Below are positions 27,541 through 64,000 of a stretch of 64,000 nt of DNA, piece after piece. Each line of letters starts with the position of its first letter. Position 1 is the first letter of the stretch. A model generated the notes under the pieces. That model was not told the origin of the DNA. It made no database searches and saw only the letters and a list, made by a program, of their open reading frames with translations. A program made the position numbers and the translations under genes. The DNA lies in assembly GCF_054482525.1 (NCBI RefSeq), contig NZ_CM137006.1; one strand, given 5' to 3'.

Positions 27541-27547
27541 GATTATA

Positions 27548-27580
27548 AGCGCATGTTATTGTTTAACATGCGCTTTTTTA
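27548..27580 (+). terminator. Hairpin terminator immediately after serW (AGCGCATGTT...AACATGCGCT + TTTTTT)
   Basis: 10-bp perfect stem followed by a T-run, 8 nt after the tRNA 3' end. Confidence 0.65.
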
Positions 27581-27689
27581 TTTATCCTTCCGGACAGTAT
27601 GCCATCGGGTATGCCATCTGAAACCGGTTTATATGCCCCGCGATCATATCTTATCGGACAATTTCCGATCTTTGAGCATACTGGCAAAG

Positions 27690-28532
27690 CTATACTGCCA
27701 GCATGTCAGGATAGTGTTTTGCGATAATATCATTCAGTCTGTCAACCAGTTCTGGTTTCCTGAACGTGATGTGTGCGGAGCCCTTCTTAAAGTATCTGAT
27801 GCTGAACATCTCATCTTCATAGTCCTCTTTACCCTGAACAGACTGGATGTGGTCATCCAGACGAAGGGTGATGTTTTCCCGGTTGTCGGGGATCGGTTTG
27901 CCGCTGAACAGGTGCAGCATTCTTTCCAGGTCGGCAAGTCGATCTACCTGGTGCCCGGTGATAAGATGAAATCCCCACCGGTCCCATCTCACCAGATTGT
28001 TGACGATAATTTTACTGCCAAATTTACAGGGGCAATTAGTTTTGTAATTCCAGCTCAATCCCCTGAAGACGTTGATCACCCCTCGCTCAAACACTTCATC
28101 TTTGTTCTGGTGCAGTTGTTCAAATGTGCTCAGAATGTTCGCTTCACTGACTTCCGGAAAATTATCATACTCCAGTGACCGGTACCATGTATCACGGGCC
28201 TGTGCATCCATTAAGGAAAGCATCCCTGAACGTTGCATCAGGTCACGCCAGATTTCTCGGTCAAGATTCCGGGTAATGGCTTTCATTGCTGTTTCGGGTT
28301 TCTCCATCAGCCAGCAACCGCAGCGAAAATCCTGTTTCATGGCCCAGTCCGGGGCGGTTTTACCTCCAATACTTTCTGTCATTGATGAGATTTCAGCCAG
28401 TTGCCGGATAAGTGTATCGATTTGCAGCAGTGTACTCTTTCGTACAGCCAGAATGTGGCTGACTGAGGTTGAGCAGATAACGTCCGTATGCCCGTTGACC
28501 ACTTCCGGATGGGAGAGTGTGATTGCAGACAT
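27690..28532 (-). CDS. Hypothetical protein, tentatively DUF4942-like (280 aa); first gene of the island next to serW
   Basis: ORF with uniform codon usage and no frame interruptions; sequence resembles proteins I recall at the ends of CP4-like islands; family assignment from memory only. Confidence 0.55.
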   Translation of the reverse strand: MSAITLSHPEVVNGHTDVICSTSVSHILAVRKSTLLQIDTLIRQLAEISSMTESIGGKTAPDWAMKQDFRCGCWLMEKPETAMKAITRNLDREIWRDLMQRSGMLSLMDAQARDTWYRSLEYDNFPEVSEANILSTFEQLHQNKDEVFERGVINVFRGLSWNYKTNCPCKFGSKIIVNNLVRWDRWGFHLITGHQVDRLADLERMLHLFSGKPIPDNRENITLRLDDHIQSVQGKEDYEDEMFSIRYFKKGSAHITFRKPELVDRLNDIIAKHYPDMLAV

Positions 28533-28616
28533 AATTGATATTCCTTTTGGTTTATAAACGAAAACGCCAGCCGTATTCAGGCTGGCGTCAGTGGAATGAA
28601 GTCTGGTGAGTAAGAC

Positions 28617-28814
28617 TCACCTGTTCTGTTGCAGAAGCTGCTGTTGGCGCAGGGTACGGATATCTTCCCTGGCCTGTTCAATGCAGGGCAGCAGTGCTGC
28701 TGAATCCGTTTTATCCTCATCGTTGTCGAAGATAATCCCTGATTCGCAGTCAATATTGTCCTGCAGCCACGCAATCAGAATATCCAGCGCCGTTTCTGTG
28801 GTTAATGATTTCAT
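28617..28814 (-). CDS. Small acidic hypothetical protein (65 aa)
   Basis: MKSLTTETALDILIAWLQDNIDCESGIIFDNDEDKTDSAALLPCIEQAREDIRTLRQQQLLQQNR; compact ORF in island TA module. Confidence 0.45.
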   Translation of the reverse strand: MKSLTTETALDILIAWLQDNIDCESGIIFDNDEDKTDSAALLPCIEQAREDIRTLRQQQLLQQNR

Positions 28815-61462: not shown

Positions 61463-62476
61463 TTATTCAATACCTGTGGTGACTGTAAAAGTGCGCGTTT
61501 GCTGCGGTGCAACCTGAATCAGCGTGCCATTACGTTGCGCGGCAAGATACCCCTCAGGTCGACAGGTTGCTGGTAATGCAAAGGCGGCTACCTGTTGCTC
61601 GCCGTTATAAAGGATCCAGCGTGTCACATAATTTAGTTCAGCACTGGAGAAACGAGTAACAAACGTAGTGCCATCGGGAGCGATCATGCGAAACTCTGGC
61701 TGATCTGTGTAAGCGTCCAGTTTGTCTGCAAAGAAGACTATTTCTGGATCATAAAATTCCGGTTGATTCAGCGTCGACAGAGAGGCTTCTCCCTGCATAA
61801 TCCGTTGATTAAACGCCAGCCACTGGGCGGTGGGATTAACATGCGAAGGTACTGATTCACGCAACCTTAATATTTCGTCCGGTATATTCTGGCTGAACGT
61901 AGCATTTGGTATATATGCATAATTCATGTGGCACATATATTGTAGTGGCATATCTACAGAAGCCAGATTGGTTACGGCCATCTTAATATCGAACAATGTA
62001 GAGGATTTGTGAAGGACCACTGTTGGCTGAGCCAGATAATGATGCCCGAACCCCATTACATACTCGTAACGCCCGGTAAGGCGTAACATATCTCCCTCTA
62101 ATTCCATCCATGCTTCATCCATCGCGGCACAGGCCATTTCACCGTGTAGCAGATGAGTATCTTCCGCAGATGGGCAGCCATTAGCCAGCAAACCTGAATG
62201 AAAGGCAAAACAGCCATAGGTCTCTATCACCTCTGTCGCCGGTTTAGGCTGGCGAAACATATTGCACATGGTGAGACTGTGTCCATCAAATTGCGCATCC
62301 CAAATCATCTGCCCCATCCAGGGAAGAATAATTAAATGTCCACGACTGTTTGCAATTTTAAGCCCCTCGACACCACTGTCATAGCGAAAAGACGTGACAG
62401 TAAAATCACTATTTTCCAGCAAGATACGAGGTTTTTCGCCAAAAAGCGCCCGCCACAAATAAATACGCGTACTCAT
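61463..62476 (-). CDS. deoX: DeoX-like protein (337 aa; mutarotase-like protein of deoxyribose operons)
   Basis: Follows a FucP-like permease and a pfkB-type kinase in the order of the deoK-deoP-deoX operon of Salmonella and pathogenic E. coli; assignment from gene order and size. Confidence 0.45.
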   Translation of the reverse strand: MSTRIYLWRALFGEKPRILLENSDFTVTSFRYDSGVEGLKIANSRGHLIILPWMGQMIWDAQFDGHSLTMCNMFRQPKPATEVIETYGCFAFHSGLLANGCPSAEDTHLLHGEMACAAMDEAWMELEGDMLRLTGRYEYVMGFGHHYLAQPTVVLHKSSTLFDIKMAVTNLASVDMPLQYMCHMNYAYIPNATFSQNIPDEILRLRESVPSHVNPTAQWLAFNQRIMQGEASLSTLNQPEFYDPEIVFFADKLDAYTDQPEFRMIAPDGTTFVTRFSSAELNYVTRWILYNGEQQVAAFALPATCRPEGYLAAQRNGTLIQVAPQQTRTFTVTTGIE

Positions 62477-62487
62477 AACGATTCTCC

Positions 62488-63804
62488 TCAGGACTCTGTG
62501 ACTTCAGCCAGTGCATTACGTACTTTGCTTTCACGCCAGAAGTAGACACCGACATAGACAAAACAGAGCATAGAAACCAGGAATGAAAGCTGTAGTGAGT
62601 GGAACATATCTGCAATATACCCCTGAATTGCCGGAACCACCGCTGCGCCAACAATAGCCATAACAATGACTGCTCCTGCCATTTCTGTATGTTGGTTATC
62701 AACTGTATCCAGTGTTCCTGCATAGATCGTCGCCCAGCAAGGGCCAAACAAAACACTTACCAGGACGGCGACATAGACCGCGCTGAAACTTGGAGCCAGT
62801 GCAACATATGCCAGAAACAGCGCCCCTATAACGGAATAGAGAATTAGGACTTTTTCCGGATTAAAACGTGTCATAAGGATGTTGGCTATAAACTTGCCAA
62901 TAAAGAAGCAGGCAAAGCTGTAGACCATGAAGTTTGAAGCATCACGTTCGTTGATATCGCCCAACTCCAGTGCCAGACGGATGGTAAATGACCATACTGC
63001 GACCTGCATACCCACATAAAGGAATTGAGCCACAATACCACGACGAAAGCGCGAATTTTTAGCCAGATAGCGCAGCGTATCCATTGCTGACGGGCGTTTA
63101 TGGTGACTTGTCTGTGCCACTTTACAGGTTGGGAAGCGGGTTAAAAGGAACAACACCATGACCACAACAAGAATCATAATCATATACTTATACGGTTCAA
63201 GGGTGTTCTCTAACATCAGCACCTTAAAGTTGTGAATTTGCTCGGCGTTCATTCCGGACATCTGCTTCTCAAGGCTTTCCCCCTCGGAGAAAACCAGATA
63301 TTTGCCCAATAAAATACCAGACGCAGCACCAATCGGATAAAAGGTCTGGCTGATATTGAGCCGCAATGTGGCATAGGCTTTTGGACCGATCATTGAACTG
63401 TATGTGTTCGCTGCAGTTTCAAGGAAACTCAGGCCAATCGCAATCGCAAAAATAGCTGCAAGGAACATAGTGTAGGTTGCCATATGCGAGGCAGGGAAAA
63501 AAAGTGTACAACCACCAATATACAGCGTCAGGCCAATTAAAATTGCCACCTTATAACTGGTCTTTTTAATCACAAGGGATGCTGGTATTGCAATTAAAAA
63601 ATAACCTCCATAAAATGCGCTCTGCACCAATGCTGAAGCAAAGTTACTTAGCGAAAATACACTTTTGAATTGAGTGATTAATATGTCATTTAATGCAGCT
63701 GCGCATCCCCATAGCGGGAATAAACACGATAACAAAATAAACTGGAACAAGGGAGTCTTATTCAGATACCCATCAGGCATCTGAATGATGTTTTTATCGT
63801 TCAT
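62488..63804 (-). CDS. deoP: FucP-family MFS sugar permease, DeoP-like (438 aa)
   Basis: 12-TM MFS protein with FucP-like N-terminus; between kinase and deoX-like genes. Confidence 0.6.
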   Translation of the reverse strand: MNDKNIIQMPDGYLNKTPLFQFILLSCLFPLWGCAAALNDILITQFKSVFSLSNFASALVQSAFYGGYFLIAIPASLVIKKTSYKVAILIGLTLYIGGCTLFFPASHMATYTMFLAAIFAIAIGLSFLETAANTYSSMIGPKAYATLRLNISQTFYPIGAASGILLGKYLVFSEGESLEKQMSGMNAEQIHNFKVLMLENTLEPYKYMIMILVVVMVLFLLTRFPTCKVAQTSHHKRPSAMDTLRYLAKNSRFRRGIVAQFLYVGMQVAVWSFTIRLALELGDINERDASNFMVYSFACFFIGKFIANILMTRFNPEKVLILYSVIGALFLAYVALAPSFSAVYVAVLVSVLFGPCWATIYAGTLDTVDNQHTEMAGAVIVMAIVGAAVVPAIQGYIADMFHSLQLSFLVSMLCFVYVGVYFWRESKVRNALAEVTES

Positions 63805-63832
63805 AGTGCTACCTTTAACTGTGCAGGATGAT

Positions 63833-64000
63833 TATTCGTTTAAGGTTAAAAATTCATTAAATTGTTCAATACTCGGATAAGATGATTGCGTACCTTTCCC
63901 TGTGACGCTGAAAGCGGCAAAGAGAGCGGCTTTTTTCAAAGCGGCTTCAACATCACCGCTTTGAACATAATAATGGGAAAAGCAACCAATAAATGCGTCA
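63833..64000 (-). CDS. deoK: 3' end of a pfkB/ribokinase-family sugar kinase gene, DeoK-like (partial, runs off the window)
   Basis: Minus-strand translation ends ...DAFIGCFSHYYVQSGDVEAALKKAALFAAFSVTGKGTQSSYPSIEQFNEFLTLNE*, typical of pfkB-kinase C-termini. Confidence 0.45.

Follow-up and report, generated by a model that had tools for sequence, protein, structure and literature searches.

The question raised by this locus is how a large block of accessory DNA came to lie immediately behind a tRNA gene that has no integrase gene at its side. The window, that is, the whole 64-kb stretch of DNA analyzed here (contig NZ_CM137006.1, assembly GCF_054482525.1), contains the tRNA-Ser(GGA) gene serW followed by such a block, and an earlier note, made from the sequence alone, had left the choice between an integrase beyond the window and a decayed composite. 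We conclude that 36.5 kb of the window very probably represent the beginning of an SRL-PAI / OI-43 / OI-48 (SpLE1)-type integrative island, with its integrase gene at the far end and with modular cargo. The island is real but belongs to an ordinary, well-studied family.

To the left of serW, the window contains the genes cydD-cydC-aat-infA of the K-12 serW locus in reversed orientation, and serW itself has the same sequence as K-12 serW and as serX of E. coli AH62. In a four-way alignment, identity to K-12 covers the entire tRNA gene and breaks off after ...CACCGCCA at position 27540; from 27541, the window continues with GATTATAAGCG..., while K-12 continues with TATTTAAAGAAG.... K-12 synteny hence ends at serW, as the earlier note had proposed, and its claim that everything from 27541 onward is accessory was confirmed up to position 64000: this DNA matches the island of AH62 with 29 mismatches and 0 gaps over 36,555 bp, and a serW junction of this kind is present in 272 of 5,426 complete E. 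coli genomes. The gene annotation was carried over from AH62 with an offset of +24190 (Table 1).

Table 1. Features of the serW island and its tRNA boundary (positions within the window)
Feature	Position	Strand	Basis or remark
tRNA-Ser(GGA) serW, intact	27453-27540	+	ARAGORN and Rfam both; forms island attL junction
14-bp recombination core CCCCCTCACCGCCA, the final 14 bp of the tRNA	27527-27540	+	left copy of island direct repeat
Island-borne terminator hairpin and T-run, 12-bp stem	27547-27585	+	stands in for native serW terminator
Tandem RGTATGCCAT pair, 12 bp apart	27596-27617	+	putative arm-type integrase binding sites
Conserved CP4-44-like module	27690-40713	-	AH62 annotation transfer and ORF list
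DUF4942	27690-28532	-	
DUF957	28617-28814	-	
DUF5983	28831-29319	-	
CbtA toxin	29316-29699	-	
YeeU/CbeA antitoxin	29780-30160	-	
Hypothetical	30171-30854	-	
DUF987	30873-31094	-	
RadC-like JAB	31157-31633	-	
Antirestriction	31649-32134	-	
DUF932	32226-33044	-	
DUF905	33144-33377	-	
IrmA-like pseudogene, frameshifted	33456-33910	-	
YeeR family	33986-36502	-	
Ag43/Cah adhesin	36623-39469	-	NF033177, 1986 bits
Rfam IS102 RNA match in Ag43 leader	39488-39724	-	73.4 bits
GTPase	39841-40713	-	
Replaceable defense cassette, low GC (about 0.41)	40897-44262		breakpoints versus RIVM_C029670
ORF A, 227 aa, hydrophobic N-terminal stretch	41379-42062	+	
ORF B (DS-29), 261 aa	42417-43202	+	
ORF C, 250 aa, HNH and DUF6650	43364-44116	-	
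Two perfect TTTAGCTAA repeats, then degenerate third CTTATCTAT	45047-45064	+	
RRDM defense island (RptR / type I R-M / DarTG / M48)	45096-54710	+	AH62 annotation
rptR-like regulator	45096-45335	+	
hsdM	45375-47813	+	PADLOC type I MTase
hsdS	47813-49147	+	PADLOC specificity subunit
darT	49160-49816	+	NCBIfam DarT 262.6 bits, over cut-off
darG	49813-50880	+	NCBIfam DarG 451.2 bits, over cut-off
hsdR	50899-53994	+	
M48 metallopeptidase	53994-54710	+	
IS600 (IS3 family) transposase fragment, module junction	55066-55659	+	AH62 annotation
SRL PAI D-aspartate utilization module	55902-59274		NCBIfam matches
DcuA-type transporter (orf9)	55902-57200	-	
Aspartate racemase (orf8)	57266-57985	-	
LysR regulator (orf7)	58336-59274	+	
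Decayed IS200, tnpA frameshifted	59392-59984	-	adjacent STnc490 RNA element intact, 143 bits
STnc100-family sRNA match	59991-60205	-	136 bits
Pseudo-tRNA-Ile(CAU), ileX-like	60619-60691	-	Rfam tRNA 30.7 bits; no ARAGORN call
Sugar use operon, deoK (deoxyribose) type	61463-64000	-	truncated by window end
Aldose 1-epimerase-like	61463-62476	-	
FucP-type permease	62488-63804	-	fucP model match
Ribokinase-family kinase	from 63832	-	window end cuts gene

The anatomy of the left end was read directly. The 14-bp core was found by pattern search as a single copy in the window, located at the end of the tRNA gene, and therefore the island end does not lie inside the window. This core is the reverse complement of TGGCGGTGAGGGGG, the repeat published for OI-43, OI-48, and the SRL PAI, whose perfect 14-bp copies are equal to the 3'-terminal 14 bp of serW/serX (PMC3064760). 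A search for a longer repeat, matching the final 25 nt of the tRNA with up to 3 mismatches, gave no hit either in the window or at the far end of the AH62 island. The true repeat spans just 14 bp and was first spotted by reading the sequence and then located by pattern search. The direct repeat of the serW 3' end for which the earlier note had suggested a search is hence represented once in the window; in the AH62 island, a second copy was seen at the far end. Beyond the core follows a terminator hairpin that is not present in K-12 at the same position but is 99% conserved in the O157, RIVM, and Ec-FL1 islands, and then a tandem RGTATGCCAT pair. The two copies are the only matches to this motif across the 64 kb, and a similar pair adjoins the start of the integrase gene in AH62; their position and rarity suggest that these pairs are integrase arm sites. 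The attL arm shows approximately 99% identity to its counterparts in O157:H7 OI-48 and two other serW islands.

No integrase gene was found in the 64-kb window, either in the list of open reading frames or in the annotation transferred from AH62, and the toxin-antitoxin end, with its DUF4942/CbtA module, adjoins the tRNA; the earlier note was correct on both points. Within the 62.7-kb island of AH62, a P4-type integrase is encoded at a distance of 62 kb from the tRNA; its gene is succeeded by CCCCCTCACCGCCA, behind which the native tRNA-downstream sequence resumes. This protein has an Arm-DNA-bind_3 domain, a central Phage_int_M domain, and a catalytic Phage_integrase domain, an AlpA gene is located close to its gene, and at the DNA level it shares 99.8% identity with the O157:H7 integrase. 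At the far end of the AH62 island, ARAGORN detected no tRNA, and only short tRNA-end repeats are present, within an RtT-like repeat. The same layout was observed in O157:H7 TR01, where int adjoins ycdU and the DUF4942 end adjoins serX, and has been described for OI-43 and OI-48, with int on the clpA/ycdU side and an intact tRNA at the opposite end (PMC3064760). Since the toxin-antitoxin/DUF4942 end of this family always adjoins an intact tRNA, the absence of an integrase at the tRNA is normal and not a sign of decay.

For serW, the predicted attR was built as a chimera of the integrase arm, the core, the K-12 sequence downstream of serW, and clpA. This integrase-core-clpA sequence was found at 100% identity, with 224 genomes covering at least 80% of it. 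It is unlikely, in our judgment, that the window represents a decayed, immobile composite in which the integrase end was deleted or replaced and the attL half alone survives. Internal decay is present in the form of the IS600 and IS200 remnants, the frameshifted IrmA-like gene, and the pseudo-tRNA, and OI-48 often shows IS-mediated internal deletions (PMC3064760). In addition, attL-type junctions at serW (272) outnumber int-attR-clpA junctions (224), so that the far end must have been lost or rearranged in some copies. However, the window is nearly identical to AH62-type islands that retain int and attR, and the int-clpA junction is retained in most serW islands. Of the two options in the earlier note, the integrase beyond the window thus gains support from the AH62 integrase and the serW int-clpA junctions, and the toxin-antitoxin end at the tRNA, as the published norm of the family, does not point to decay. 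We favor the reading in which the integrase of the window's copy lies beyond the window and in which int and attR are present in the source genome; the complete island probably measures about 63 kb. Excision of OI-43 and OI-48 has been measured (PMC3064760), and that of the SRL PAI depends on int (PMC7545054). The island in the window may likewise be mobile today.

The genes serW and serX have identical sequences from the start of the tRNA to about 45 bp past its end, and the exact island variant is located at serX in all 7 complete genomes that have it. None of the complete genomes of the collection has it at serW, and its far end is therefore without a direct comparator there. Both the identity and the serX location could also be accommodated if no integration had occurred at serW and the junction had instead arisen by homologous exchange between serW and serX, as might happen if the serX-serW interval were tandemly duplicated, or by an assembler mis-join across the identical 88-bp tRNA. 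We regard this as highly improbable, as integrase-type junctions at serW are common for both attL and attR, serW is occupied by OI-43 in O157 (PMC3064760), and serW is a strongly suspected alternative site of the SRL PAI, which sits at serX (PMC7545054). Furthermore, stable maintenance of a roughly 230-kb duplication would not be expected, and the window shows no sign of a mis-join. The location at serW and not serX is the one mild novelty of this island, all of whose cargo modules have already been published.

According to the preferred reading, integration at serW, a far-end tyrosine integrase of the P4 family would recombine the 14-bp core of a circular element with the final 14 bp of a tRNA-Ser(GGA) gene. 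Because the E. coli gene copies are identical, either serW or serX can be the target, and serW would have been used in the window's genome. The tRNA would be left intact because the element brings an identical 3' end and its own terminator (attL, 27527-27585). The integrase, an AlpA-type helper, and the other 14-bp repeat would lie past the window at the clpA side, where attR is predicted to read ...GGTCCCCCTCACCGCCA joined to TATTTAAAGAAGAGCTCG..., followed by clpA. Between the two conserved arms, IS remnants and a hot spot beside the GTPase gene would be the points of cargo exchange, and the window's copy would have come to carry Ag43, CbtA/CbeA, the DS-29 cassette, RRDM, the SRL D-aspartate genes, and a deoK-type operon.

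The mosaic content described in the earlier note, comprising a CP4-44-like module, defense genes, IS remnants, and metabolic cargo, was recovered in full. The tRNA-proximal module aligns with K-12 CP4-44 in six collinear blocks at 85-96% nucleotide identity, and the order yeeP-flu-yeeR-yeeS-yeeT-cbeA-cbtA-yeeW is collinear. K-12 CP4-44 itself is not located at a tRNA-Ser gene, and neither an integrase nor the antirestriction, DUF932, DUF905, and IrmA-like genes of the window occur in it. The GTPase-Ag43/Cah-...-CbtA-DUF4942 module of O157:H7 TR01 (OI-48) has the identical order and orientation, with the DUF4942 end at the tRNA in both. It is of note that in K-12 the sRNA IsrC is annotated upstream of flu, at the position corresponding to the IS102 RNA match.

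Within the replaceable cassette, the translation of ORF B is the same sequence as WP_061089765.1 (HEP3 / DS-29), which is printed in the supplement of PMC13092281 and was scored as defensive in its Table S6; genes A and C are listed there as "Predicted novel defense gene." ORF C matches the PADLOC PDC-M68A and nuclease-effector models, its homologues carry a precomputed PF20355 assignment, and its HNH residues are invariant. On-the-fly Pfam scans and NCBIfam gave no match for ORFs A, B, and C, and neither PHROGs nor PADLOC gave one for ORF A or B. A search of the PDB with Foldseek using an AlphaFold2 model of ORF C (pLDDT 76.5) yielded no significant match, with generic four-helix bundles at the top (E > 1). 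A reading of the three genes as one system was rejected, as gene A is found by itself in other E. coli strains, DUF6650 homologues are for the most part solitary, and the published defensive unit is B alone. Similarly, ORF C was considered as the type VI Thoeris effector ThsG, but no TIR-domain partner is encoded beside it, and hence it was not assigned as such; DUF6650 homologues are mostly solitary and lie beside unrelated genes, with no conserved partner at the inspected loci. It is conceivable, although we hold it only tentatively, that the variant was caught at serW either after a recent jump driven by the integrase or through independent capture and that ORF A, as a membrane-anchored protein, and ORF C are anti-phage proteins in their own right, with ORF C being a stand-alone HNH-DUF6650 effector. 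If true, the element would still be mobile, and ORF C would use a nuclease where type VI Thoeris has a TIR-made signal.

The adjoining region has the gene order rptR-hsdM-hsdS-darT-darG-hsdR-M48 with operator repeats upstream and is an RRDM island. The TTTAGCTAA motif and its function have been published, and the RRDM island of EPEC E2348/69 (RptR - type I R-M - DarTG2 - M48) has been tested against phages (PMC12255303). The window matches the EPEC island in the order of the seven ORFs, in the upstream repeats, and in the DarG and M48 accessions, which are identical, while HsdM, HsdS, HsdR, DarT, and the regulator have other accessions and are presumably near-identical. The EPEC island is flanked by IS100, IS3, and IS66 elements, whereas that of the window lies inside the serW island.

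Homology between the window and the serW island of RIVM_C029670 stops at the IS600 fragment (55701). In the D-aspartate module beyond it, three SRL-PAI primers (PMC6980539) match perfectly, at 57183-57200, 57939-57955, and 58110-58130. When aligned with K-12 ileX, the pseudo-tRNA proved to have lost 5 nt from its anticodon stem and to be mutated in its acceptor stem, and this gene is probably a relic acquired along with the adjoining cargo. Gene order and the literature on deoK islands (PMC5382810, PMC7545054) suggest that the last operon is of the deoK type; rbsK and a DeoR regulator come next in AH62.

Taken together, this implies that, thanks to a single integrase and a pair of identical tRNA genes, the same island backbone carries very different cargo: tellurite resistance and urease in O157, drug resistance in Shigella, and, in the window, three layers of phage defense together with genes for the use of D-aspartate and deoxyribose-type sugars. 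For annotation, a toxin-antitoxin end at serW or serX without a nearby integrase is the expected layout, and the search for the integrase should be directed to the DNA next to clpA or ycdU, at a distance of 60-100 kb. This lesson about the island is already familiar to specialists.

The closest known systems are OI-43/OI-48 of O157:H7 EDL933 (SpLE1 of Sakai) and the Shigella SRL PAI. Like these, the window has an insertion at the 3' end of an intact tRNA-Ser(GGA) gene, the left 14-bp repeat followed by the family attL arm, and a tRNA-proximal module with its DUF4942 end at the tRNA. OI-43/OI-48 target serW/serX with the same 14-bp repeat, the AH62 twin and the window resemble them in integrase DNA (99.8%) and attL arm (99%), respectively, and int lies at the clpA/ycdU side, as seen in the AH62-type relatives, with the module adjoining the intact tRNA. 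The O157 islands, known as tellurite resistance and adherence islands, carry ter, ure, and iha, in place of which the window has DS-29, RRDM, D-aspartate genes, and the deoK-type operon, and they are larger (about 87 kb) than AH62-type islands (62.7 kb). The SRL PAI has been described as carrying 14-bp repeats of identical sequence, and its integrase as sharing about 99% identity with the OI-43/48 enzyme. The window shares the orf7-orf8-orf9 genes of the SRL PAI (LysR, aspartate racemase, and DcuA), to which the three perfectly matching primers belong, but it is without the SRL resistance transposon and without fec genes.

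The island boundary coincides with the 3' end of serW. The tRNA-Ser gene is flanked on its left by cydD-cydC-aat-infA; the K-12 gene order is clpA, serW, infA, aat, cydC, cydD, and the window carries this serW locus in reverse. In an alignment with K-12, identity spans the entire tRNA gene and ends directly after ...CACCGCCA at 27540, beyond which the window reads GATTATAAGCGCATG... and K-12 reads TATTTAAAGAAGAGC...; because K-12 identity is lost right at this position, the boundary proposed in the earlier note, immediately 3' of serW, is exact. The DNA from 27541 onward is accessory, as that note had held, with a comparable junction (cydDC-aat-infA-serW-DUF4942) being found in only 272 of 5,426 complete E. 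coli genomes. GC content inside the island ranges from 0.41 to 0.57. A hairpin with a 12-bp stem and a T-run, both island-supplied, follow directly on the tRNA; they would terminate serW transcription and replace the displaced native terminator.

Positions 27446-64000 of the window (36,555 bp) align without gaps to E. coli AH62, whose island spans 62.7 kb, with 29 mismatches. The far end of the AH62 island contains an AlpA-family gene and a gene for a tyrosine recombinase of 400 aa that comprises Arm-DNA-binding, central, and catalytic domains. The sequence ...CAGGCGGTCCCCCTCACCGCCA|TATTTAAAAAAAAGCCCGTACG... lies about 160 bp past the integrase start codon. Here the direct repeat of the tRNA 3' end that the earlier note had suggested looking for is present as a 14-bp copy, CCCCCTCACCGCCA, followed by native tRNA-downstream sequence. 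Because this core precedes native sequence, attL, the junction next to the tRNA, consists of the chromosomal tRNA and an island arm, and attR, the far junction, consists of an island arm and the chromosomal downstream sequence, the two sharing a core of 14 bp. The sequence RGTATGCCAT occurs in the 64 kb solely as a tandem pair near the tRNA, and in the 50 kb searched at the AH62 far end, its only occurrences likewise form a tandem pair, again spaced by 12 bp and situated about 20 to 40 bp from the integrase start codon. Excision as a circle would place one pair on either side of the core; this placement and the arm-binding domain of the integrase suggest that the pairs are putative arm-type binding sites.

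For attR at serW itself, the AH62 integrase arm and core were joined to the K-12 serW-clpA sequence, and this chimera was searched for in genomes. Real genomes contain the full 956-base sequence at 100% identity, and matches spanning at least 80% of its length were obtained in 224 genomes. Since 272 attL-type junctions are found at serW versus 224 attR-type junctions, some serW islands seem to have lost the integrase end; that this has happened to the present copy is in our view improbable. In TW01221 and NCTC86, two genomes that have both junctions, the serW island measures about 82 kb and about 100 kb, respectively. The earlier note had also remarked that the toxin-antitoxin end abuts the tRNA without an integrase nearby. 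This is the normal architecture of the family, as O157:H7 strain TR01 and published members show the same layout: in TR01, int adjoins ycdU and the other end reads GTPase-Cah-...-antirestriction-JAB-DUF987-YeeU-CbtA-DUF5983-DUF957-DUF4942-serX. At the DNA level, AH62 and O157:H7 share 99.8% identity in the integrase region, and the window, O157:H7, and two other serW islands agree at about 99% over the 160-bp island arm beside the tRNA. The best explanation, which we regard as very probable, is that an integrase inserted an element of the SRL/OI-43/48 family into serW, in which case the integrase and attR would be located about 26 kb past the window end.

The AH62 island is located not at serW but at its paralogue serX, adjoining ghrA, and the same holds for the full-length near-identical variant in all six other complete genomes that carry it (AH65, EC_J_9, E-ge-1, E21, F200, and elppa5). 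Alignment of the serW and serX sites showed identical tRNA genes and downstream sequence and different upstream flanks, as would be expected if either of two identical targets could receive a site-specific insertion. Alternatively, serW and serX, being identical, could have exchanged sequence or been mis-assembled to give the junction, a scenario that we consider highly improbable. Past attR, the AH62 flank (27331-29389 of the sequence labelled L003) contains a DUF2726 gene and then phoH, and that of TR01 contains ycdU, so strains also differ in the far flank of serX. In the native DNA downstream of serX in AH62 (L003 27102-27240), an RtT-like repeat ends in a second perfect 14-bp core (27226-27239), a potential secondary integrase target just past the island. 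The K-12 sequence downstream of serW is without this repeat.

Features of the serW island and its surroundings (cargo coordinates are AH62 coordinates plus 24190)
Feature	Position (strand)	Description
STnc130 sRNA match	12439-12573 (+)	Rfam, 140 bits
tRNA-Ser	27453-27540 (+)	Anticodon GGA, intact; sole copy found
Hairpin	27547-27585	
RGTATGCCAT pair	27596 and 27608	
CP4-44-like module	27690-40713	Collinear with K-12 yeeP-flu-yeeR-yeeS-yeeT-cbeA-cbtA-yeeW, 85-96% identity
IrmA-family gene	33456-33910 (-)	
Low-GC cassette	40897-44262	ORF A, DS-29, ORF C (43364-44116, - strand)
TTTAGCTAA repeats	45047-45064	Two, perfect
RRDM island	45096-54710	Seven genes: RptR-like regulator, type I HsdM, HsdS, DarT, DarG, HsdR, M48 peptidase
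IS600 fragment	55066-55659	Homology with RIVM_C029670 (serW island comparator) stops here
SRL PAI orf9-orf8-orf7 module	55902-59274	DcuA, aspartate racemase, LysR regulator
Decayed elements	59392-60691	Decayed IS200, STnc100-family RNA match, ileX-like pseudo-tRNA
STnc490 and STnc100 matches	59861-60205 (-)	Rfam, 143 and 136 bits
ileX-like pseudo-tRNA-Ile(CAU)	60619-60691 (-)	
deoK-type operon	61463-64000	Epimerase-like gene, FucP-type permease, kinase cut by window end

The mosaic content described in the earlier note, namely, a CP4-44-like module, defence genes, IS fragments, and metabolic cargo, was located in the window in each case, and the island reported there is real and was correctly read. 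The CP4-44-like module encodes an intact Ag43/Cah adhesin of 948 aa. Its IrmA-family gene is frameshifted in the AH62 annotation and intact in RIVM_C029670; the window copy is probably likewise a pseudogene, because there are no gaps relative to AH62 and no ORF of at least 80 aa is present there. The EPEC version of RRDM protects against phages, with RptR binding TTTAGCTAA repeats (PMC12255303); its DarG and M48 accessions are the same as those of the window, and DarT and DarG exceed the NCBIfam cut-offs. The racemase-transporter pair enables growth of Shigella on D-aspartate (PMC6980539), and three primers from that study have perfect matches in the window, each where it would be expected. 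The strong matches to STnc490 and STnc100, sRNA families named from Salmonella, adjoin the decayed IS200 transposase gene; the STnc130 match is a backbone feature well clear of the island. The pseudo-tRNA is situated between the IS200 remnant and the deoK-type operon, whose kinase continues in AH62 together with a DeoR regulator. Its anticodon stem has lost 5 nt and its 5' acceptor stem is mutated; it may be the fossil of the site at which an element that formerly carried the deoK cargo was attached.

The low-GC cassette is replaced by a different 1.1-kb segment in RIVM_C029670, and the whole cassette was found in only 14 of 5,426 genomes. The three genes move as a unit: in strain F41 they adjoin the GTPase gene of a CP4-like island different from this one, and in strain Z1323PEC0014 they lie where a lambdoid prophage ends near icd, adjoining an icd fragment (these two loci being L008 9001-12365 and L009 9001-12367). 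Gene A occurs without the rest in about 19 further genomes. The middle gene is sequence-identical to WP_061089765.1, which is DS-29, a single-gene anti-phage system validated in the DefensePredictor study, where the flanking genes are listed as predicted novel defence genes (PMC13092281). Homologues of ORF C, found in Proteobacteria, Bacteroidota, and Verrucomicrobiota, bear the Pfam label PF20355 (DUF6650), an invariant HNH-type pattern (C25, C30, H53, N78, C83, and C86), and a conserved helical C-terminal domain, which is confidently modelled in ORF C. An on-the-fly Pfam scan of ORF C gave no match, at odds with the precomputed label of its homologues. In type VI Thoeris, a DUF6650 effector domain is paired with a TIR protein (2025 preprint). 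We set aside ORF C as such an effector because no TIR gene lies beside it and its homologues in other bacteria are mostly solitary genes at defence-island or prophage-moron positions. Judged from sequence, ORF C is a candidate single-gene nuclease and, given the absent TIR partner, looks like a stand-alone relative of the Thoeris effector domain.

Every module of the island has a published counterpart, and the island belongs to a well-known kind; the sole mildly new point is that this exact variant lies at serW here and at serX in all seven complete genomes of the collection carrying it. Bielaszewska et al. (2011) described O islands 43 (serW) and 48 (serX) of O157:H7 EDL933, which are bounded by perfect 14-bp repeats, TGGCGGTGAGGGGG, carry a P4-family integrase on the clpA/ycdU side next to a cryptic ser' remnant, and excise at 10^-3 to 10^-4 per cell (PMC3064760). 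According to a review, the Shigella SRL PAI requires int for its excision, and serW is strongly suspected to be an alternative site for it (PMC7545054). The OI-43/OI-48 repeat, the reverse complement of the 14-bp core described above, corresponds to the last 14 bp of serW and serX and is identical to the repeats of the SRL PAI (PMC3064760).
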